DNA of 64,000 bases from a virus: IMG/VR virus record IMGVR_UViG_3300049460_000371, positions 23,354 to 87,353 of that record; one strand, written 5' to 3'. The position numbers were made by a program, and so were the translations under genes. Position 1 is the first letter of the stretch. The number at the start of each line of letters is the position of its first letter. This document shows, piece after piece, positions 5,009-59,190 of this stretch. A model generated the notes under the pieces. That model searched no databases. It had not been told where the DNA came from and worked only from the letters and a program-made list of their open reading frames with translations.

Positions 5009-5646
5009 ACCAATCGACCGCATTCTGGGCTCAATGGATTGAGCTACAACTAAAACACAACCTGGATCGCATGGTCGATCTCAGCATCAAGAATTTTCAC
5101 TTCCCAGGGCTCAATTACGTTTGCTTCGACTTCATGCCGCACCAAACGATTCGCCTCTACATCATCGATCCATCCAGCAAGCCGATCGATACCGAGAACG
5201 TACAGATCCACAATCACCTGTACGATAGTCAGATCCTGGTGCTGCAAGGCCACATCACCAATCGTGTCTACAAGCTGAATAACACTCGTGATGACTATAA
5301 CGCATACGAGCTGACGTCCGCGCTACATCCAGACAATCATGACCGGAAAATCAAGCTCAAACACTTGACCAAACGTGGCTTGGACGAAGTCAAGACTATC
5401 GAATTACATCCTGGCGATATGCACTATCAGCCCCACACTGAAATTCATAATGTCACGAATGATCAGTCGCTCTTTACAGCATTCATGGTATTCGAGTTTC
5501 CGACTGTGAAGAAACATTCAGTAATCTGGACCCGAAAGGAATACCCGGATCTAACCATTCCAACCCCAGACGCATACTTGAAATACGAACCACAGGAACT
5601 CAAAGCTTTGGTGACGCGTATGCTGGAGCAAATGAAAATTAGTTGA
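5005..5646 (+). CDS. cupin-like (His-rich) protein
   Basis: IHNHLYD and PGDMHYQPHTEIHNV motifs. Confidence 0.55.
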   Translation: MNQSTAFWAQWIELQLKHNLDRMVDLSIKNFHFPGLNYVCFDFMPHQTIRLYIIDPSSKPIDTENVQIHNHLYDSQILVLQGHITNRVYKLNNTRDDYNAYELTSALHPDNHDRKIKLKHLTKRGLDEVKTIELHPGDMHYQPHTEIHNVTNDQSLFTAFMVFEFPTVKKHSVIWTRKEYPDLTIPTPDAYLKYEPQELKALVTRMLEQMKIS

Positions 5647-5961: not shown

Positions 5962-6154
5962 TATGGCAACCATAACTCCAGTCGGCTATACCATTTCCTA
6001 TCCTGATGGTTCAGGTATCGGCCAATGGATATCCTGGATGGCTTACTTCGATACGATCGAGGAGGCCAAGAAGAAGGCCACCGACCATATCACCTTCCTG
6101 AAAGAACGAGGCCACGACGTTGTTCTGGTTACACTCACGGCAACCATCTAATAG

Positions 6155-11320: not shown

Positions 11321-11934
11321 CGTCGACCGATAACCATGTAGCGAGTGTACATGGGGAAAACTAGTTCACCAGCATACAAGGTCTCTGACAAGTTCAGAGA
11401 CCTTTCTAATTCCGCAGCAGAATCGACACAGTTGACATGGTCCAGTACATGCCGGGCATTATTGCTCTGGGCCACGATAAGCGTGCCAGCGTCGATTAAA
11501 TCAATCCAAGACGAGGTATCACTGATATGCTCCATTGAGGTATTGACTACACAGTCGTATCCCGCATAATCAAATTTGTACATATCTGAATGAATCGCCG
11601 TACCTGTCCCGGCGAGCACCAGATTTGCGATTGTGGTGGATGATTCACTTATGTCGAGACTATCAGCCTTGAATAATGGGCACGTTTCATTGATGGCTCT
11701 TGCCAACAAACCTATCCACCCACCCACCACAATGAAACGAGCCCTATGGGCTGGCAATACTTCAAGTAATTTGTTCAAGAGCCATTTCTTGCTCATAAGC
11801 TGTCCACTACTAAGTGCATCACGCATTTCTTCCTTCGTGACAGCATTGAAGGCCACCGGGTCATATAGGGCATTGGTGAAACCAATGATTGCGCGGTCGA
11901 TGGGTGAAAGGCTATTAATCAAGTTTTCGTTCAT
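11317..11934 (-). CDS. class I SAM-dependent methyltransferase
   Basis: VVGGWIG motif I, SLDIS, VVNTSMEH. Confidence 0.7.
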   Translation of the reverse strand: MNENLINSLSPIDRAIIGFTNALYDPVAFNAVTKEEMRDALSSGQLMSKKWLLNKLLEVLPAHRARFIVVGGWIGLLARAINETCPLFKADSLDISESSTTIANLVLAGTGTAIHSDMYKFDYAGYDCVVNTSMEHISDTSSWIDLIDAGTLIVAQSNNARHVLDHVNCVDSAAELERSLNLSETLYAGELVFPMYTRYMVIGRR

Positions 11935-23027: not shown

Positions 23028-23960
23028 TCATACTGGAATCAAACAACGATCATATTGTGTCTGCCCAACATTAAGTACATGATGTGACACCGCGGTACCT
23101 GTAGTAGACTGATGATAATTTGAATCAACCAATACCGATGCCTTATCCATGTCATTCCACACAGTATTGCCGTACACCATTTTGATACCCAAAATACGAC
23201 CACGCAATTTGGCTATCGACGAGCCCAAAGCGGATGACAACATTTCCACCGCGGTCATAGTCAATGCCCCATTTTGAACAGAACCAGCAGCCAACGTACT
23301 TATTGGGTAACCACTTCCTGGCATTCCCAATGCGGTAACTACATTGTTATATGGAGTCGTAGAACTACCAGTCGTGAGGCCATTTGCTACACCACGTAAT
23401 GATCCAAAAAAACCAAACCCACCAGAATTGGGATAGATTATTTGATGTGTACCAATAAAGATATTGGTCGATATCGTATCGTCTTCGCCAAAGTCTTTAG
23501 CAATTTCAAATGATCCAAACAAGAAACCATATACTAACAAGTTTGAACGTAATCTAGTTGCAAGCCAGCGTTGATTGACAAACATTACAATGGCGGCACC
23601 ATCGGCTATTGTAATTGCTTGATTGCCGAATACCGAGCCAGAACCAGAACCAGTACTGTAGTAGGTGCCGTCGTTGGTACCAACGTGAGTAGTTGCATTC
23701 CACGATTCCCAAATCTTGAATAACATTGCGGTAGTGCTAAATGCGATTTGAACATACTTGTATGTTGATGCACTACCTTGTTGAAGAGTACGATATACTC
23801 GCCCGACCGTCAAACCGCCAGGGGCGGCGGCATCATACTGTGTCCAGCCCTTCGATACGATGTACGCATCGATTGCTGTCATGATTGATGCAGGTGTATC
23901 TGTCGCCGCCATTACAAACATGGACGAGTTTGGTCCTAAAATTGTTTCTACCATTGCCAT
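23028..23960 (-). CDS. putative tail fibre/virion protein, paralog of 24619
   Basis: 310 aa G/S/T-rich; shares ETILGPNSS, KIWESWN..THVGTNDGTYY, WNDMD, LIPV. Confidence 0.65.
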   Translation of the reverse strand: MAMVETILGPNSSMFVMAATDTPASIMTAIDAYIVSKGWTQYDAAAPGGLTVGRVYRTLQQGSASTYKYVQIAFSTTAMLFKIWESWNATTHVGTNDGTYYSTGSGSGSVFGNQAITIADGAAIVMFVNQRWLATRLRSNLLVYGFLFGSFEIAKDFGEDDTISTNIFIGTHQIIYPNSGGFGFFGSLRGVANGLTTGSSTTPYNNVVTALGMPGSGYPISTLAAGSVQNGALTMTAVEMLSSALGSSIAKLRGRILGIKMVYGNTVWNDMDKASVLVDSNYHQSTTGTAVSHHVLNVGQTQYDRCLIPV

Positions 23961-52122: not shown

Positions 52123-53025
52123 GTGAAGAAAATCATTCTGATGGCAATGCTGGCCCCGTCGATTGGCGGTGCCGCCCAAGCTGGCGATATCGGTATCGCA
52201 TCCGGTGCGCCGACTGGCACCAACTACCCGATGGGTGAAGACATCGTGCGCGTCTGCTCGACGCCAAAGACCCAGATCCACAACGTGGAATCCGAGGGCT
52301 TCCTGGACAACATCTTCAAGATCTACAACGACAAGAACACCCAGTACGGCATGGTGACCGCTGACGCGGCCGTCTACCAGCAGGGCATCGACCCGAAGAT
52401 GATGGATCGCATCGTGATGATCTTCCCGTTCTTCTCGGCCGACATGCACCTGATCGTGCGTGAAGATTCGCCATACAACACCCTGGCCGATCTGCAAGGG
52501 CGTCGCGTCGTCGAAGGCCCAGAAGGCTCCGGTACCTGGGTCTCCGTGCAAGTGATCAAGAGCCTGACCGGCATGACCTGGAACGGGCAGGTGGCGTCGC
52601 AGAAGGAAGGCCTGAATGCGGTGCTGACCGGCAAAGCCGATGCTGAATGGGTCGTCGCTGGCTACCCGGTCGACATGCTGGCCAAGCTGCCGAAAGGCGT
52701 TCGCCTGATCTCGGTCACGCATCCTAAGCTGGACAGCTTCAAGATGTACACCCGCACCATGATCTCGAGTGGTTCGTATCCGTTCCAGAAAAAGTCGGTG
52801 ACCACCTACAAAGTGGATTCGTTCCTGGCGACTTACGCTTATAAAAACCAGTACCAGCAAGAGATCGGCGACCTCGTGACCTGCATCACGAAGAACATCG
52901 ACGTCCTGCGCAAGACCGGCCACGCCAAGTGGAAAGACGTTGACCCGCTCGACATCAACCGCATCCAGTGGCAAGCTCACCCTGCGGCTGTTGCTGCAAT
53001 CAAGCGTGCAAGCGGCGGCAAGTAA
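52123..53025 (+). CDS. TAXI family TRAP transporter solute receptor
   Basis: IASGAPTGTNYPMG, ESEG..DN, HLIVREDS..DLQGRRV..GPEGSGT. Confidence 0.85.
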   Translation: MKKIILMAMLAPSIGGAAQAGDIGIASGAPTGTNYPMGEDIVRVCSTPKTQIHNVESEGFLDNIFKIYNDKNTQYGMVTADAAVYQQGIDPKMMDRIVMIFPFFSADMHLIVREDSPYNTLADLQGRRVVEGPEGSGTWVSVQVIKSLTGMTWNGQVASQKEGLNAVLTGKADAEWVVAGYPVDMLAKLPKGVRLISVTHPKLDSFKMYTRTMISSGSYPFQKKSVTTYKVDSFLATYAYKNQYQQEIGDLVTCITKNIDVLRKTGHAKWKDVDPLDINRIQWQAHPAAVAAIKRASGGK

Positions 53026-53464: not shown

Positions 53465-53821
53465 ATGAAGTACCTCGCGATAATGCTGCTATGGGCGTCT
53501 GTGGCAAGCGCCCAAGACAAGCCCTGGCAGGTCGTTGAACCTGAAATGTCCAAGGCTCCGCCATCAGAGCTTGACAAAGCCTTGGCAAAATTTCCCCCAG
53601 TAAAGCCCATGGGCGAACAACCAGCCAGGAAGCCCAAAACCAAACCGCGCAAGATCAAACCTGAATGGGGCATGACGCGCTATCAGGTTTGGCACGATAC
53701 TGTTTGGGGTCGTCCAATCAAGACTCAACGCATAGTTGATGAGAACGGCACCTGGGATATGTGGACGTACAAGGATGGCGTGGTATGGTTCCTTGACGAT
53801 GCGTTGACCCAAACCGAATAA
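53465..53821 (+). CDS. exported protein
   Basis: signal peptide; GMTRYQV..WGRP motif. Confidence 0.55.
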   Translation: MKYLAIMLLWASVASAQDKPWQVVEPEMSKAPPSELDKALAKFPPVKPMGEQPARKPKTKPRKIKPEWGMTRYQVWHDTVWGRPIKTQRIVDENGTWDMWTYKDGVVWFLDDALTQTE

Positions 53822-54109
53822 TTCGCCGAAAAGATGAATATGAATACTGTTGCTCAAATTGAAAGTGCAATACGCGACGAATTGAAGACACTGCTGGCGC
53901 GTTATGATGCAACACTGTCTGTCACGGATGGTCGCATTATAGTAAACGTGGACGAGGTAAAGAGCGGGTTCGTCAACCATCCTGCACACGAGTTCTCTCT
54001 GGGGATGCTTGTATTGCCAGCCAGGGACGACGACAAATATCGTTAACCAGACCTTCTTATATTAGGCAAGTGATGTGGCAAAAAGATTTCAAAAGATTCA
54101 AAATAGTTA

Positions 54110-54138
54110 TTGACTTGCCACATTCAGGCCTGTAATAT
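54110..54138 (+). promoter_or_regulatory. sigma70 promoter of tRNA operon
   Basis: TTGACT-17bp-TAATAT with AT-rich UP region. Confidence 0.7.
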
Positions 54139-54306
54139 ACGATACATGCAGTAACGCAACGCAACAAGTAGGACAGTTTGTTCCACGAAATTGCGTCATT
54201 TTACTAAATAGATTAAACGACGCAACCTTGCGTCATAATTGTCTTGCAATAATGGGTGAATGATTTTATCCTTGTTGCAGACGCTAAATTTTAAGGAAAC
54301 CTAATC

Positions 54307-54408
54307 ATGTTCGCTACTTCTTATTCATATTGCTACTACGGATCGAGTTCAAGCTCGGTATCGTACGGCTATGAATCCGAAGAGGGTAGCATGGGAGGGA
54401 AAGTGTAA
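54307..54408 (+). CDS. attenuator leader peptide MFATSYSYCYYGSSSSSVSYGYESEEGSMGGKV
   Basis: AAGGA RBS; 25/33 codons are Ser/Tyr/Gly/Glu/Cys, matching the downstream tRNAs. Confidence 0.85.
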   Translation: MFATSYSYCYYGSSSSSVSYGYESEEGSMGGKV

Positions 54409-54441
54409 AGCGTCACAACGAACGTTTTATACCAACCCTCC
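54394..54441 (+). promoter_or_regulatory. antiterminator hairpin
   Basis: GGAGGG(54394-99)/CCCTCC(54436-41) and GTGTAAAGCGT(54403-13)/ACGTTTTATAC(54422-32). Confidence 0.8.
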
Positions 54442-54467
54442 GCAACGAAAGTTCCGGAGGGTTTTTT
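54434..54467 (+). terminator. attenuator intrinsic terminator
   Basis: AACCCTCCG-CAACGAAAGTTC-CGGAGGGTT-TTTT. Confidence 0.9.
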
Positions 54468-54479
54468 CATGCTTGGTTA

Positions 54480-54490
54480 GTTCTTTAACA
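54480..54490 (+). promoter_or_regulatory. Nus boxA antitermination element
   Basis: GTTCTTTAACA matches rrn boxA GYTCTTTAANA. Confidence 0.75.
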
Positions 54491-54503
54491 ATTTAATTCA
54501 CTA

Positions 54504-54580
54504 TATCCAGTTCGTCTAGCGACTAGGACACTTGGGCTTTCAACCCTTGGACGCGAGTTTGAGTCTCGTACTGGATACCA
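54504..54580 (+). tRNA. tRNA-Glu(TTC), divergent
   Basis: TATCCAG/CTGGATA, loop CTTTCAA, CCA; weak anticodon stem. Confidence 0.7.
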
Positions 54581-54615
54581 AAACATTACATCTTCACTTG
54601 AGGGTTTAACGTTTT

Positions 54616-54708
54616 GGAGAGTAGGGCAGATGGTGACGCAAGCGGTCTTGAAAACCGTCCCACTGGGGCCAACCCCCGGTGACTGTTCGATTCAGTTATT
54701 CTCCTCCA
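54616..54708 (+). tRNA. tRNA-Ser(TGA)
   Basis: loop CTTGAAA, long variable arm, CCA. Confidence 0.85.
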
Positions 54709-54713
54709 GATTT

Positions 54714-54807
54714 GGTGAGTTGGCCGAGTTGGTCGAAGGCACTTTCCTGCTAAGAAAGCAAGTGATCAAAAATCGCTTCGTGGGTTCGAATCCCACACTC
54801 GCCGCCA
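54714..54807 (+). tRNA. tRNA-Ser(GCT)
   Basis: loop CTGCTAA, long variable arm, CCA. Confidence 0.92.
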
Positions 54808-54823
54808 AGTTTTAGTAGTACAT

Positions 54824-54910
54824 GCGTTTATAGACTCCTAAGGAGAGAGCACCGGCTGTAACCCGGTTGGCTATAAGCCCCGCAAAGTTCGATACTTTGT
54901 AGACGCACCA
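54824..54910 (+). tRNA. tRNA-Tyr(GTA)
   Basis: ACCGG-CTGTAAC-CCGGT, variable arm, ACCA. Confidence 0.85.
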
Positions 54911-54917
54911 AGTTTTT

Positions 54918-55001
54918 GTTTCTATCGTCTAGTGGTTTAGGACGGCGTTGTGGGGCCGGACTCCATAGGCTACACAGGTTCGATTCCTGTTGGAAACACC
55001 A
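54918..55001 (+). tRNA. atypical tRNA-like RNA, anticodon unassignable
   Basis: acceptor, D and T arms and CCA intact; no 7-nt anticodon loop. Confidence 0.55.
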
Positions 55002-55027
55002 AGTTTTTTGTAGTAAGGTAGTACCAT

Positions 55028-55104
55028 GTTTCGTTCGTCTAGCTGGCCTAGGACATCAGCCTTTCACGCTGAGTACACGGGTTCGAATCCCGTACGAAAC
55101 GCCA
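55028..55104 (+). tRNA. tRNA-Glu(TTC)
   Basis: TCAGC-CTTTCAC-GCTGA, CCA. Confidence 0.92.
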
Positions 55105-55146
55105 GTGACACAAATGCACGCTAAATATCAACTTTGAGGGTTGATT

Positions 55147-55827
55147 ATGCAGCGGGCAAATAGAAGAAAGTATCATTACATATATCGAACCACGTGTGTG
55201 GTTACGGGGAAATACTACCTGGGTATGCACAGCACGGATGACCTGCAAGATGGTTATATGGGGTCAGGTAAGCGACTTGGTTATTCCATGCGAAAGTATG
55301 GAATCGAAAATCATGTATGTGAGATATTAGAGCATTACTTCACCAGAGAATGGTTGAGGGAGCGCGAAGCGGAGTTAGTATGTGCGGAAACGCTAACTGA
55401 TCCGATGTGTATGAATCTTAAACTTGGTGGTTTGGGTGGGTTTGATCATATCATTAATGATAATATTAAACATAAGGCAAGCTCGGCATTAGGTGGTAAG
55501 ATTGGTAGTGCGAGTAACTGGGCAAATATCAAAAACGATCCTGAAAAATTGAATTTGATTAAAATGGCTGCTGCTATTAGATTTAAACAAATGCACAAAG
55601 ATGGTAAAGCAGGACAGAATACATTTTTAGGCAAAACGCATACTGAAGAAAGTAAACGTAAAATGCGTGAGGCAAAGAATGAATATGGACTAGGTACCAA
55701 CAATAGTCAATATGGTACTTGCTGGGTTACCAATTTTGATATTAACTGTTCGAAAAAGATACAAAAAGAAGAACTAGAGATATATATCCGTAATGGATGG
55801 ATTGTTGGTAGAAAGATTAAATTTTAG
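55147..55827 (+). CDS. GIY-YIG (Seg-like) homing endonuclease within tRNA array
   Basis: YIYRTT..TGKYYLGMHST..DGYMGSG; NUMOD3 FLGKTHTEESKRKM. Confidence 0.88.
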   Translation: MQRANRRKYHYIYRTTCVVTGKYYLGMHSTDDLQDGYMGSGKRLGYSMRKYGIENHVCEILEHYFTREWLREREAELVCAETLTDPMCMNLKLGGLGGFDHIINDNIKHKASSALGGKIGSASNWANIKNDPEKLNLIKMAAAIRFKQMHKDGKAGQNTFLGKTHTEESKRKMREAKNEYGLGTNNSQYGTCWVTNFDINCSKKIQKEELEIYIRNGWIVGRKIKF

Positions 55828-55877
55828 GATGTAGGACTTTTTGTTGGTTGGCTGTGTGACAAAAAGCGTAAGATCAT

Positions 55878-55969
55878 GTATGAGTGGTGCGAGTGGTTGA
55901 AGCCGTCTGACTGTAAATCAGAACTCACCGAAAGGGGGCGCGTAGGTTCGAATCCTACCTTATACACCA
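55878..55969 (+). tRNA. tRNA-Tyr(GTA)
   Basis: TCTGA-CTGTAAA-TCAGA, ACCA. Confidence 0.9.
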
Positions 55970-55986
55970 AGTTTCAAGAAGTACAT

Positions 55987-56071
55987 GCGTGGGTGGCCGA
56001 GTGGTTGAAGGCGACGGACTGTAAATCCGTTCTCAAAAAGCGCGATGGTTCGAATCCATCCCTACGCACCA
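55987..56071 (+). tRNA. tRNA-Tyr(GTA)
   Basis: ACGGA-CTGTAAA-TCCGT, ACCA. Confidence 0.92.
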
Positions 56072-56180
56072 GTTTTGCTTGGCTAGTAGAGGAAAGTGTG
56101 TTTAATCGGGGCCGCGAGCCTTTACTCCTCCCGAAGAACGGACATGGTTCCGTCTTTACACAGTGCAGTTTTGTTTCAAT

Positions 56181-56255
56181 ATTCCGTTCGACTTCGGGTG
56201 AGGTCAGCAGCCTTTCACGCTGCGTAGGTGGGTTCGAGCCCCATACGGAATACCA
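56181..56255 (+). tRNA. tRNA-Glu(TTC)
   Basis: GCAGC-CTTTCAC-GCTGC, CCA. Confidence 0.88.
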
Positions 56256-56262
56256 AGTTTTA

Positions 56263-56346
56263 GGACAGATGGGTGAGTGGCTGAAGCCGACGGACTGTAA
56301 ATCCGTTCTTAATTGCGCGCTGGTTCGAATCCAGCTCTGTCCACCA
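56263..56346 (+). tRNA. tRNA-Tyr(GTA)
   Basis: ACGGA-CTGTAAA-TCCGT, ACCA. Confidence 0.92.
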
Positions 56347-56550
56347 AGACGTCGTAGCACGTCAGTGTATCGTCCAGTTGAGCGCTCGACTGTATGTGTG
56401 TTCTGGCCCCAGTGGGAGCATTGGGGGTCGACTAGGGTCGGCCAATATCGCGGGTAGCCAATCCAGCGTACGAATGGGAAAAGGGTTCCAGACCATGCTG
56501 GCCTTTTCGACGGTGTAAAAACCCATGGAGAGGGATAGAAATGTCCCTCA
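56347..56550 (+). ncRNA. candidate structured ncRNA between tRNAs
   Basis: series of GC-rich hairpins, no credible ORF. Confidence 0.45.
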
Positions 56551-56552
56551 CT

Positions 56553-56628
56553 GCGGATGTAGCTCAGTTGGTAGAGCATCTGGTTGCCAATCAGAAGGTC
56601 ACGGGTTCGAACCCCGTTATCCGCTCCA
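56553..56628 (+). tRNA. tRNA-Gly(GCC)
   Basis: loop TTGCCAA, TCCA. Confidence 0.93.
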
Positions 56629-56664
56629 AGATTTCAGGCGTTGAGCTGACGCCTTAGTAGTAAA

Positions 56665-56723
56665 GCCGGGCAGAGTCCAATAGGGGACAGAGCTCCGTGG
56701 TTCAACTCCACCGCCCGGCTCCT
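56665..56723 (+). ncRNA. tRNA-like RNA lacking anticodon arm
   Basis: GCCGGGC/GCCCGGC acceptor, GTCC/GGAC D-arm, GTGG-TTCAACT-CCAC T-arm. Confidence 0.55.
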
Positions 56724-56735
56724 AGTATGTTTTGA

Positions 56736-56820
56736 GCGGGATTAGCTCAGTGGTAGAGCACTTGACTTCCAATCAAGAGGCGAATAGTTCACACCGGTTC
56801 GAACCCGGTATCCCGCTCAA
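56736..56820 (+). tRNA. tRNA-Gly(TCC) with extended variable region
   Basis: CTTGA-CTTCCAA-TCAAG; ends TCAA. Confidence 0.85.
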
Positions 56821-56830
56821 AACATATTTC

Positions 56831-56914
56831 GGATGCGTAAAGCTGGTGGTTCCACGCAGATGGTCTGTAAAACCGTTCCTTCGGGGAGTAGTTCGATTCT
56901 ACACGCATCCACCA
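56831..56914 (+). tRNA. tRNA-Tyr(GTA)
   Basis: ATGGT-CTGTAAA-ACCGT, ACCA. Confidence 0.85.
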
Positions 56915-57011
56915 TTACTAGGAGTTGAAAATGAATACCATTCTGATGATTCGAGGGCGAGGTTGAAACTAATCAAGTTTTCAATCTAACCATCAATCAT
57001 CAGAGGACAAA

Positions 57012-57770
57012 ATGGAATTCATCTATAACTTTAACGCGCTGCCGTTTTTGAACGAACAAGAGCTGATACTTAAAGAGTATCTAACAAAAACTATAGCGCT
57101 TCAGGTCAAAGCGATCCTGAAGAAACAAAACAGAGCTTGGGACTTGGTGCAAATTGAAGCGCCATGTTTGATCCCAAGGGAGCATGTAAATGCCAACTAC
57201 ACAGATGCAGATCTGTGGGTGCAACAAAGTCAGAACCACGCTGAATTGGTTCTGAAGCCTGAAACAACTGCTTCGTCGTATTTGTACTTGGAGCATCTGT
57301 TACGGCACAACGAGGTAATGCCTCCGGTAGCTGTTTGGCAAGTGTCCAAGAGCTTCCGTCGTGAGCAGGATCAAACGACAAAGAACTGTCGTTTTAAAGA
57401 GTTCTATCAGCAAGAGTTTCAGTGCCTGTACTCAGCTGATACTAAGAATGATTATCAGGCGAGTGTAATCGAAGATCTGGCAGCAATGCTCATGCGTATT
57501 GTGTGTTTGCCCACCAGGATAGTGTTAAGTGATCGACTGCCTGACTACTCGTTGAAGACGATCGATATTGAGGTCTGGAACAACGAGAAGTGGATGGAAA
57601 TCTGTAGTGTGTCAACACGCAAGGATTTCACGTTCAAGCCGTCATTCAAGAACAAGCAAGTTGAATGTTTGGTGTTGGAGATTGCGATCGGCGTCGAACG
57701 TTTGATCTACAACATTAGCAAGCGTGAAAGCGTATTTGAAAATCTTCGGGTTGAGAATACGTTGAAGTAG
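57012..57770 (+). CDS. glycyl-tRNA synthetase-like class II aaRS catalytic domain (alpha2 type, truncated)
   Basis: LKPETT, QVSKSFRRE, RFKEFYQQEFQ, PDYS..TIDIE, EICSVSTRKDF, EIAIGVERL. Confidence 0.8.
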   Translation: MEFIYNFNALPFLNEQELILKEYLTKTIALQVKAILKKQNRAWDLVQIEAPCLIPREHVNANYTDADLWVQQSQNHAELVLKPETTASSYLYLEHLLRHNEVMPPVAVWQVSKSFRREQDQTTKNCRFKEFYQQEFQCLYSADTKNDYQASVIEDLAAMLMRIVCLPTRIVLSDRLPDYSLKTIDIEVWNNEKWMEICSVSTRKDFTFKPSFKNKQVECLVLEIAIGVERLIYNISKRESVFENLRVENTLK

Positions 57771-57799
57771 AAGTAACGGGGGCCTTGTGCCCCTTGAAT

Positions 57800-57891
57800 G
57801 GAAAATTGGCTGAGCGGTCTAAGGCAGCGTCTTGGAAAGGCGTCGATTCAGGTAACTGGGTCCATGGGTTCGAATCCCATATTTTCCTCCA
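57800..57891 (+). tRNA. tRNA-Ser(GGA)
   Basis: loop TTGGAAA, long variable arm, CCA. Confidence 0.9.
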
Positions 57892-57892
57892 T

Positions 57893-57979
57893 GGTGATGT
57901 GCCCGAGTGGTCGAAGGGGACGGATTGCAAACCCGTATGCGAAAGCGCGCCGTGAGTTCGAATCTCACTGTCACCTCCA
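57893..57979 (+). tRNA. tRNA-Cys(GCA) with long variable arm
   Basis: loop TTGCAAA, U73, CCA. Confidence 0.8.
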
Positions 57980-57995
57980 AGTTTGAGATATTTGC

Positions 57996-58080
57996 AGAAG
58001 ATTGGTCGAGTGGCCGATGACAGCTGATTGCTAATCAGTAGACTAGAAATGGTCCGAGGGTTCGAATCCCTCATCTTCTG
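57996..58080 (+). tRNA. tRNA-Ser(GCT)
   Basis: GCTGA-TTGCTAA-TCAGT, variable arm; no encoded CCA. Confidence 0.85.
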
Positions 58081-58099
58081 CAAATATTTTAAAGGTTAC

Positions 58100-58189
58100 G
58101 GCGGGTAGAGTATACGGTGTACAAGCAGCCTCGAAAACTGTTCCACTTGGTGATCCCAGGTGATGGTTCAATTCCATTACCCGCCTCCA
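58100..58189 (+). tRNA. tRNA-Ser(CGA)
   Basis: loop CTCGAAA, long variable arm, CCA. Confidence 0.8.
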
Positions 58190-58277
58190 GTATTAAACAT
58201 GGCACATCGTTATTGTGTTGCTTAATTGGTTAAGTGAATGTACTATATGAGGCAATGTTACCTCATAGGAGTATTAA

Positions 58278-58529
58278 ATGAAAACCGTAATTTGCAGCAT
58301 CTCGATGAAGATGCCCCACAAGGTTCCTGTGGAAAAATGCCAAGGCTCGTTGTCTGACGCACGTCATCTGTATGGTGAATACGCCTACTGGCATGGTAAC
58401 AACTCGAGCGGCTGGCATGCACTGCCAGTACCAGATGTTGAATACGTGACTTGCTTGGAACACAGTTTGAGCAAGTTTGTAGTTGAGGAAGACGAGGCGA
58501 AGCGCTTCGGTTTGACCTATAAAGTTTAA
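58278..58529 (+). CDS. hypothetical protein inside tRNA array
   Basis: AGGAG RBS. Confidence 0.55.
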   Translation: MKTVICSISMKMPHKVPVEKCQGSLSDARHLYGEYAYWHGNNSSGWHALPVPDVEYVTCLEHSLSKFVVEEDEAKRFGLTYKV

Positions 58530-58530
58530 T

Positions 58531-58607
58531 GCAGGTATAGCTCAGTCTGGTAGAGCGCAACGTTGCCAACGTTGAGGCCACGAGTTCGAACCTCGTTACC
58601 TGCTCCA
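58531..58607 (+). tRNA. tRNA-Gly(GCC)
   Basis: CAACG-TTGCCAA-CGTTG, TCCA. Confidence 0.93.
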
Positions 58608-58616
58608 AGTTTCAAA

Positions 58617-58693
58617 GTCTATGTCGTCTAGCGGCCTAGGACCCCTGATTCTCAGTCAGGACAACGTGGGTTCAAATCCCATCATAGACTCCA
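58617..58693 (+). tRNA. tRNA-Glu(CTC)
   Basis: CCTGA-TTCTCAG-TCAGG, CCA. Confidence 0.9.
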
Positions 58694-58700
58694 GTTTCAT

Positions 58701-58774
58701 GTAGGTTTAGCCAAGCGGCCCGGCATCGGATTGCAAACCCGACTAGACGAGTTCAACTCTCGTAACCTACTCCA
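58701..58774 (+). tRNA. tRNA-Cys(GCA)
   Basis: loop TTGCAAA, TCCA. Confidence 0.88.
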
Positions 58775-59190
58775 AAATTCAGTTGATTGTTCACTCATAT
58801 GAACGTATCCTATGATTTTTCATGGAAGTACATATGAGTGAACGCCCACCAGAAACTGCGCAGGAAACCGCAACACGCCAAGCAGCTGAAGCCACTTTGG
58901 CTAAATTGCCTCTTAGGCTGAAAGGGCTGTTGGAGCGCTTCCGCGAGCAAGGCAAAGTTCCCATCTCCATCCTCTACCCTGAAACCAAAGCTCAAGCTCT
59001 CAAAGAGCTTGAAGAGCTGCGGAGTCACGGCATCCTTAGCCTCATCGACGAAGTCTACGAATTCACCGAAGACGGCCAGCATGTCGCTGTGGCTAACCTG
59101 AACGAAATCCTTTGCATCTATAATGCAAGCAACGACTAGTTGATCTCTTGTTCATTTGAGTCTATAATGACTTATCTAAACAAGGAGCTC

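Follow-up and report, generated by a model that had tools for sequence, protein, structure and literature searches.

A probable multivalent leader-peptide attenuator in front of a tRNA gene array in a virus record probably from a rhizosphere metagenome

The window analysed here is a stretch of 64,000 nucleotides (positions 23,354 to 87,353 of IMG/VR virus record IMGVR_UViG_3300049460_000371), which forms the last 64 kb of a single virus record of 87,353 bases; positions are those of the window. Its plus strand carries an array of tRNA genes (54505-58774), comprising 19 genes called by ARAGORN and one uncalled Tyr-like gene, and directly in front of this array lie a short open reading frame (ORF), two overlapping hairpins and an intrinsic terminator, which together are the subject of this analysis. 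ARAGORN assigned 18 of its 19 tRNAs, all belonging to five families: Ser (5), Tyr (4), Glu (4), Gly (3) and Cys (2). An earlier sequence-only reading of this DNA had listed 19 assignable tRNAs, five of them for Tyr; the restriction to five families stands, while the ARAGORN count is one lower, and the difference is probably explained by the uncalled Tyr-like gene (56831-56910). This gene was matched by the Rfam tRNA-Sec model with 29.4 bits, below the threshold, and inspection by eye gave an anticodon loop CUGUAAA (Tyr, GTA); its acceptor stem is good, its variable arm long and its D-arm odd. Apart from the array, the record contains just two tRNA genes, for Thr (41402) and Asp.

The leader ORF (54307-54408, plus strand) consists of 33 codons and a TAA stop, and encodes the peptide MFATSYSYCYYGSSSSSVSYGYESEEGSMGGKV. 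A Shine-Dalgarno sequence AAGGA (54293-54297, plus strand), read from the sequence, is located 9 nt upstream of the ATG at 54307, placing a short ORF with start signals directly 5' of the genes it would regulate. The peptide contains 10 Ser, 6 Tyr, 5 Gly, 3 Glu and 1 Cys, and 23 of the 24 codons in its putative regulatory part (codons 5-28) belong to these families, V18 being the sole exception. Over the complete ORF, 25 of the 32 codons after Met are five-family codons, compared with 22.5% in the long ORFs of the record (binomial 4e-11). When all ATG-initiated ORFs of 20-60 codons in the six frames of the whole 87-kb record (n=586) were ranked for this fraction, the leader came first with 0.78 (runner-up 0.50, mean 0.24, standard deviation 0.09). 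The codons proposed to be regulatory are thus enriched and matched to the function of the downstream genes. The ORF, its ribosome-binding site and its composition had been described in the same terms by the sequence-only reading, which also pointed to the use of all six Ser, both Tyr, both Glu and all four Gly codons. This is correct, though the presence of all 10 codon classes is not significant by itself (P = 0.25 given the peptide). All 25 five-family codons can be read by anticodons of the array, but this is no more than the amino acid match would give, since no synonymous codon of the five families is left unread by the array.

The leader RNA is highly structured, the region 54290-54475 folding at -69.1 kcal/mol (z = -6.8 versus shuffles). 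The two hairpins noted previously were recovered by inverted-repeat search and overlap via CCCTCC. The first one, the putative antiterminator (54394-54441, plus strand; arms 54394-54413 and 54422-54441), is formed by pairing of GGAGGG in codons 30-31 with CCCTCC (54436-54441), stacked on an 11-bp hairpin (54403-54432) which holds the stop codon. The second one is the intrinsic terminator (54436-54467, plus strand), composed of a stem-loop (54436-54461) of -15.4 kcal/mol followed by TTTTTT and situated 37 nt before the first tRNA; the inverted-repeat search placed its arms at 54434-54446 and 54451-54463. Positions 54434-54441 are common to the arms of both structures. As had been proposed, this is the geometry of an attenuator, with the ORF end and the stop codon inside an antiterminator which competes with a terminator just 5' of the first tRNA; the stop codon lies 27 nt from the terminator stem. 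No promoter-like site was found by a sigma-70 scan, to which phage-specific promoters are invisible, in the 37-nt gap separating the terminator from the first tRNA, and the terminator therefore stands between the ORF and the tRNAs with no intervening sigma-70-like promoter listed. A further hairpin inside the ORF (54306-54393, plus strand; arms 54306-54329 and 54370-54393), found by the same search, also pairs the start-codon region and is possibly a pause or single-round-translation element.

Over the same 74 nt, the energy of the antiterminator is -24.2 kcal/mol, and that of the middle hairpin plus terminator is -29.7 kcal/mol. The antiterminator is the minimum free energy structure of the transcript until the 3' arm of the terminator has been made. 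The influence of a ribosome was modelled on a nascent transcript ending at the terminator 5' arm, with a 29-nt ribosome footprint forced unpaired for each A-site codon. In this footprint model, the terminator 5' arm was sequestered with P 0.66-0.77 when the A site was at codons 1-25 and with 0.57 at codon 26, while it was freed (P 0.09-0.22) with the A site at any of codons 27-32 or at the stop; codon 33 alone rebounded (0.52). Based on these probabilities, a ribosome stalled on the Ser/Tyr/Gly/Glu/Cys stretch would spare the antiterminator and a finishing ribosome would destroy it. In silico, the antiterminator is thus exclusive of the terminator, disrupted by a ribosome at the ORF end and spared by an upstream stall.

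The sequence and folding results, together with the comparison with other phages described below, lead us to regard the element as a multivalent transcription attenuator of the ribosome-mediated (leader-peptide) kind which precedes a phage tRNA array, with a probability of about 85%. In the mechanism that we infer, transcription would start at a sigma-70-like promoter and a ribosome would translate the 33-codon leader. A promoter candidate is present at 54110-54138 (plus strand; TTGACT-17-TAATAT, 9/12 matches), and no other promoter-like site is listed on the plus strand from the upstream gene to the leader; as such sites are no commoner in the region than in shuffles, this one is a candidate only. 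While the polymerase advances, GGAGGG at the 3' end of the ORF, the stop-codon hairpin and CCCUCC would fold into the antiterminator. An unimpeded ribosome at the last codons or the stop would melt this structure and liberate CCCUCC, upon which the terminator would form and transcription would end 37 nt before the first tRNA. If, on the other hand, scarcity of Ser, Tyr, Gly, Glu or Cys aminoacyl-tRNA, the presumed physiological trigger, made the ribosome stall in codons 5-26, the antiterminator would persist and the polymerase would enter the array, with tRNAs, a homing endonuclease and a mini synthetase as the output. Because this output replenishes exactly the tRNAs tested by the leader, the element would exert negative-feedback control of tRNA supply. 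Host anticodon nucleases or starvation, named as triggers in the sequence-only reading, are conceivable causes of such scarcity.

For the comparison with other huge phages, 158 loci were fetched via the synthetase gene, a selection that takes no account of leaders, and tRNAs were called in all of them. In many of these loci, the tRNA blocks are sorted by amino acid. A composition-blind scan, which required an ATG ORF (10-70 codons) with a hairpin and a T-run behind it within 170 nt 5' of a tRNA, yielded 42 candidates; these represent 33 unique peptides, some of them overlapping frames or plain noise. The candidates include peptides which mirror the array that they precede. The SRSRSSRS leader MTITISRSRSSRSLPLVV is followed by Ser, Arg, Ser, Ser, Arg and Ser tRNAs, MNNKVNILILGTEGTTEILEGIHWLPALCS by Gly, Thr, Glu, Met, Ile and Leu tRNAs, MNFNLTNATAVATTGGVVCAGEAGTVAAGAAVEDTMSSENDFD by Val, Gly, Ala, Asp, Cys and Glu tRNAs, MKTVNTNIAIVEIAVIGGAEEGVMGVYCLNSKTS by Glu, Ala, Ile, Val and Gly tRNAs, and MNTLIYIGYIAEGGYEAGSFVNGLVLPMRKV by Glu, Tyr, Gly, Ile and Ala tRNAs. 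The leader stretches ILILGTEGTTEILEGI and AVATTGGVVCAGEAG are located before Gly/Thr/Glu/Ile/Leu and Val/Gly/Ala/Asp/Cys/Glu tRNAs, respectively. An uncultured 635-kb phage carries two leaders in succession, each located 5' of its own sub-array.

For the 32 unique candidates with an assigned array, the match between leader and array was 0.361, compared with 0.229±0.019 after shuffling (0/20000 permutations), and for the 26 unique candidates of a stricter scan it was 0.428 versus 0.257±0.021. With one leader taken per array class (11 classes), a test made to limit shared ancestry, the match was 0.514 against 0.285±0.035 (0/20000 permutations); its own array was the best match for nine of the 11 leaders and the second best for the other two. 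The codons proposed as regulatory thus change with the regulated genes across related systems, and the co-variation of leader composition with the tRNA set of the array, a check put forward with the sequence-only reading, proved strongly positive in the fetched huge-phage loci.

The match extends to the choice of codons. Among the 26 candidates, 293 of the 331 matched codons could be read by array anticodons, where 273±4.9 were expected (0/5000) when synonymous codons were resampled by the usage of each locus; this signal stems from arrays holding only some of the isoacceptors. In locus L086, 11 of 13 codons matched (4.8 expected), the leader using AGA, TTA and ATA and the array carrying the anticodons TCT, TAA and CAT, and in the Ser/Arg leader (locus L011) all eight matched (4.1 expected). 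The L086 element is on the minus strand, with the leader at 5189-5278 in reverse-complement coordinates, and its array contains Arg(TCT), Leu(TAA) and three CAT tRNAs, which are probably Ile2. As codon choice follows the array anticodons in the relatives, the sequence comparison favours sensing of isoacceptor tRNA species and not of amino acids. Sensing of tRNA could also be direct, with an untranslated leader RNA binding uncharged tRNA in the manner of a T-box or riboswitch and the antiterminator being stabilised by it. T-boxes are known to couple tRNA status to the choice between antiterminator and terminator, and the present leader is highly structured. However, 53800-59000 gave no Rfam T-box match (cmscan, E <= 1), the only matches being of tRNA type or at chance level, and as many as ten tRNA species would have to be recognised by a single RNA. 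The reading frame, the start codon and the Shine-Dalgarno sequence (or an A-rich start region) are moreover kept across leaders, with the matching triplets in frame, and we consider direct binding very improbable.

The spacing of the elements is also shared. In the composition-matched leaders the stop codon is situated 22-35 nt 5' of the terminator, and in most of them 2-17 nt separate the terminator end from the first tRNA, leaving no room for a promoter, so that these arrays should be reachable only by read-through. The complementarity between the 3' strand of the ORF and the terminator 5' arm exceeded that of dinucleotide shuffles overall (Fisher p 2e-6). Terminator sequences vary between leaders and the complementary strand varies along with them. 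The antiterminator strand GTGGCTGAGTTATG shows nucleotide-level conservation in the Ile/Ala/Gly leader family, where some members translate it as ...WLSY... and in others the ORF stops at its TGA; since it is kept in both situations, the constraint appears to act on the RNA and not on the peptide. Formal covariation analysis of the alignment of this family was uninformative either way, as the antiterminator and terminator columns are invariant. In the footprint model, the leaders L011, L009 and L002-6910 behaved as three-state elements, with P 0.10-0.24 in the absence of a ribosome (termination) and 0.7-0.85 on stalling, while the window element behaved as a two-state switch.

Several observations weigh against the attenuator interpretation. 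When the full terminator was included and equilibrium folding was performed, the terminator won at 30 of 34 ribosome positions (P 0.82-0.98), and its P fell only at codons 3, 4 and 25 (0.51, 0.26 and 0.12, respectively). The folding check suggested earlier thus found both alternative structures, but the switch was seen solely in the kinetic model with a truncated transcript. Since the terminator prevails at equilibrium for almost all ribosome positions, any switch must be kinetic, as in classical attenuators. Furthermore, the ORF-internal hairpin does not displace the antiterminator (no-ribosome P 0.67), and unlike in trp it does not act as a 1:2 anti-antiterminator in the model. As it does not compete with the antiterminator, read-through is predicted for the window in the absence of a ribosome, which again differs from trp.

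The latter prediction would suit a mechanism in which the array is still controlled by leader translation, but along a different route or in the reverse direction (Rho or RNase protection, or pyrBI-like coupling), efficient decoding raising tRNA synthesis. Coupling of the pyrBI type, where a closely following ribosome suppresses the terminator, does exist, and the direction of the switch in vivo is one that we infer from the model. The position of the stop codon, 27 nt before the stem here and at the similar distances given above in the other composition-matched leaders, nevertheless implies that a terminating ribosome would cover the antiterminator strand and not the terminator, and positive feedback on tRNA supply would make little regulatory sense. 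Control by another route or with opposite sign is therefore judged improbable.

Other observations against an attenuator concern the generality of the element and the limits of the transcription unit. The duplex test gave p = 0.053 for the window alone, and p <= 0.05 was reached individually in only five of 18 leaders. Eight of ten further tRNA upstream regions inspected by eye in the relatives (nine array starts and the internal gap at 11932 of locus L079) had no leader. Of the remaining two, one in locus L079 has a GTG-start leader, MNTLSLSLSLSYSSLYLFSDGEGCVLT, with a terminator before Tyr, four Ser, Leu and Phe tRNAs, which was missed by the ATG-only scan, and one in locus L025 has a matched ORF without a clear terminator; the leader device is common but not universal. 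A near-consensus promoter (TTGACA-17-TAATAT) lies between the terminator and the array of L086, which may be under dual control, and the distal tRNAs of the window could be driven independently from a weak promoter-like site at 56155-56183. No plus strand terminator was detected after 58774, and the transcription unit may extend further. The runs holding the stretch amount to one DNA run, from a rhizosphere metagenome and probably the source of the record, with no RNA run listed.

The small ORF, the hairpins and the terminator could finally form an independent unit, such as a peptide gene or a small RNA, with the tRNAs expressed constitutively through leaky read-through or an unrecognised phage promoter. 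The composition match would then have another cause, for instance a Ser/Tyr/Gly/Cys-rich peptide with its own function, and short peptides rich in Ser, Gly, Cys and Tyr are known as precursors of modified peptides. The strong structure of the leader RNA (z = -6.8) would be in line with a small RNA, the full-length equilibrium fold favours the terminator, and the sigma-70 scan is blind to phage-specific promoters. Yet no peptide-modifying enzyme family was found among the 10 neighbouring ORFs scanned, and the idea of a peptide precursor was rejected on this ground and because it does not explain the co-variation. An independent unit likewise gives no account of unrelated leaders which mirror their own arrays down to codon choice, of the complementarity between the ORF 3' end and the terminator arm, or of the gap of 2-17 nt between terminator and tRNA. 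This explanation is judged unlikely, and attenuation by a translated leader peptide is preferred.

A further point against the attenuator is that no sequence homologue of the window leader was found in IMG/VR or in phages by exact, tblastn, blastn or nhmmer searches. An exact 20-mer of the leader had 0 matches in IMG/VR, the leader peptide gave no tblastn match in phages, and blastn in distant mode with 54290-54620 returned a tRNA-Glu match only. The window was not matched by the nhmmer profile of an AT-rich leader family, and the leader of one relative, used as a tblastn query against phages, had no match either. The proteins flanking the array (53465-53821 and 58822-59139) had no relatives in IMG/VR, and in XbC2 and Phosso, the closest cultured-phage relatives by synthetase, no sorted array or leader adjoins the gene. 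A search with the motif GGCTGAGTTATG-gap-CCCAGTC gave four matches in IMG/VR, three of which have a tRNA within 3 kb downstream; the same motif in prokaryote genomes gave 27 matches, none with a tRNA within 3 kb downstream, and these were discarded as chance. Since no orthologue of the window leader was found, comparative support rests on shared architecture. The window leader has this architecture without detectable similarity to the AT-rich family, and the device therefore does not seem confined to one lineage.

The AT-rich relatives (L002, L009, L046 and L104) have no Shine-Dalgarno sequence; they share a promoter motif of the type TTTG ... TAnnTTTG and a peptide start MN/MK..N.I. These signals resemble the expression signals of Bacteroidota, which suggests bacteria of this kind as hosts. 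The window version has signals of the E. coli type, i.e. a Shine-Dalgarno sequence, a sigma-70-like promoter and a canonical intrinsic terminator, which makes it suited to a direct reporter test in a standard host.

The short ORF rich in regulatory codons is a feature also of the ilvGMEDA (Ile/Leu/Val), thr (Thr/Ile), his, trp, leu and pheA attenuators. As in those of the ilvGMEDA and thr type, the antiterminator overlaps the terminator, with termination when the ribosome is at the ORF end and read-through upon stalling, the latter in silico in the present case. In contrast to amino acid operon attenuators, the predicted window element controls tRNAs, a mini synthetase and a homing endonuclease instead of biosynthetic enzymes, its output would feed back on the sensed aminoacyl-tRNA pool, and its leader is phage-borne and covers five amino acids and ten codon classes at once. 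The pheST operon of E. coli, with its pheM leader, is an example of a leader-peptide attenuator before an aminoacyl-tRNA synthetase gene. It responds to a single amino acid, regulates a synthetase without tRNA genes and is located on the host chromosome, whereas the window element is multivalent and precedes a phage tRNA array. T-boxes bind tRNA without being translated, with one tRNA per element, have a conserved sequence and are found before synthetase or amino acid genes; the sequence and structure typical of them were not detected in the window by the Rfam search of 53800-59000.

To our knowledge, leader-peptide attenuation is textbook matter for amino acid biosynthesis and one synthetase operon and not for tRNA genes, and we know of no such attenuator described for the tRNA region of phage T4. 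A full-text literature search, in which subscription journals were largely uncovered and by which absence is thus unproven, returned no published account of a leader-peptide attenuator before tRNA genes. A long tRNA array in Anabaena sp. PCC 7120 is described as supernumerary, horizontally spread, silent by default and induced under impaired translation (PMC8421152), and its control is attributed to the repressor TrcR (PMC10272220). That array lies on a bacterial megaplasmid and not in a phage, its proposed control is by a transcriptional repressor, and the terms leader, terminator and words beginning with attenuat are absent from the main text of both papers (PMC8421152, PMC10272220). The T4 tRNA cluster contains an embedded homing endonuclease, SegB, as cited in PMC8421152, and in this respect the T4 region and the window array are alike.

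The proposed loop is a direct one, in which the decoding speed of particular codons is sensed and the tRNAs reading those codons are the output. Whether huge phages in general run such a closed-loop, codon-resolved control of tRNA supply, each block being transcribed only when the leader written in its own codons is read slowly, is a wider proposition, for which we put the odds slightly above even. If the attenuator works as proposed, phage tRNA arrays would be conditional modules which respond to the host tRNA pool and not constitutive luggage. This bears on the questions why phages carry tRNAs, how they cope with tRNA-cleaving defences and why the tRNA genes of huge phages are sorted in blocks. 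Under the wider proposition, a phage could detect and repair the loss of host tRNAs (through anticodon nucleases, shut-off or codon-usage mismatch) isoacceptor by isoacceptor. The leaders would then also help to assign the decoding identity of two non-canonical tRNAs (54918-55001 and 56831-56910) and to define which substrates the mini synthetase accepts.

Upstream of the leader, a weaker promoter-like sequence (TTGCAA-17-TATCCT) was spotted by eye at 54245-54273. Between the promoter-like site at 54110-54138 and the leader, five copies of the hexamer ACGCAA/TTGCGT occur within 80 bp (54154-54233). Within this cluster, GACGCAA-cc-TTGCGTC (54219-54234) is perfectly palindromic, and TTGCGTCAT occurs twice. 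Over all 64 kb of the window the hexamer is found only 50 times, with a looser cluster at 1486-1653. The cluster upstream of the leader might serve as the operator of a regulator that binds DNA, or its repeats might form a series of alternative hairpins in the 5' untranslated region. Further upstream of the array, 52123-53025 encodes a periplasmic solute-binding protein of 300 amino acids of the NMT1/TAXI type, with a signal-peptide-like N-terminus.

Inside the array, the tRNA which ARAGORN left unassigned (54918-55001; 2-base anticodon) has a normal acceptor stem, D-arm and T-arm; it may represent a pseudogene, carry an insertion or decode in a non-canonical way. Genes resembling the Tyr-like gene at 56831-56910 come first after the terminator in two relatives (L002, ~6020-6090; L104, ~840-910). 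Two tRNAs are unusually long, namely Gly(TCC) at 56736-56818 (83 nt) and Cys(GCA) at 57893-57979 (87 nt). The former is ~91% identical to the tRNA-Gly of ~355-kb jumbo phages of Serratia, Erwinia and Yersinia; Serratia phage BF has this 91%-identical tRNA-Gly, but its own tRNAs are scattered among small coding sequences. Between two tRNA-Gly genes, at ~56655-56716, a minihelix-like element is present; it lacks an anticodon arm and combines an acceptor-like stem of 7 bp (GCCGGGC/GCCCGGC) with a hairpin resembling a T-arm (CGTGG TTCAACT CCACC). Nested leaders were looked for within the array (gaps before 56553 and 58531) and before the lone Thr and Asp tRNAs, and none was seen.

Two protein-coding genes on the plus strand are embedded in the array. 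The first (55141-55827) encodes a homing-endonuclease-like protein with NUMOD3 and similarity to the group I intron endonuclease subfamily, below the cut-off of the latter. The second (57012-57770) encodes a mini class II aminoacyl-tRNA synthetase core of 252 amino acids (PF00587). The best PDB relatives of this product are dimeric GlyRS (E 1e-12 over residues 80-235); its score for NF003211 was 52.7 bits against a curated cut-off of 312, and an anticodon-binding domain is lacking. The GlyRS announced by the sequence-only reading is thus borne out as a class II core most like dimeric GlyRS, and not as a full GlyRS; the label GlyRS-like is justified on sequence grounds, GlyRS is not.

The nearest relatives of the mini synthetase are found in Xanthomonas phage XbC2 (65% identity), the 635-kb phage mentioned above (59%) and Sinorhizobium phage Phosso (49%), and there are 603 metagenomic homologues (E <= 1e-10). 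These nearest relatives belong to jumbo or huge phages, and on sequence grounds the record is taken as a fragment of a large phage. In some relatives, the mini synthetase directly follows an Ile/Ala/Val/Gly leader. In a dozen huge-phage loci (L022-L024, L028, L030-L033, L133, L136, L138 and L142), it is located just 3' of a lone tRNA with a CTA anticodon (called 'Pyl' by ARAGORN, amber-suppressor type), which lies ~100-2000 nt 5' of the synthetase match. This arrangement hints at a dedicated pair of synthetase and suppressor tRNA.

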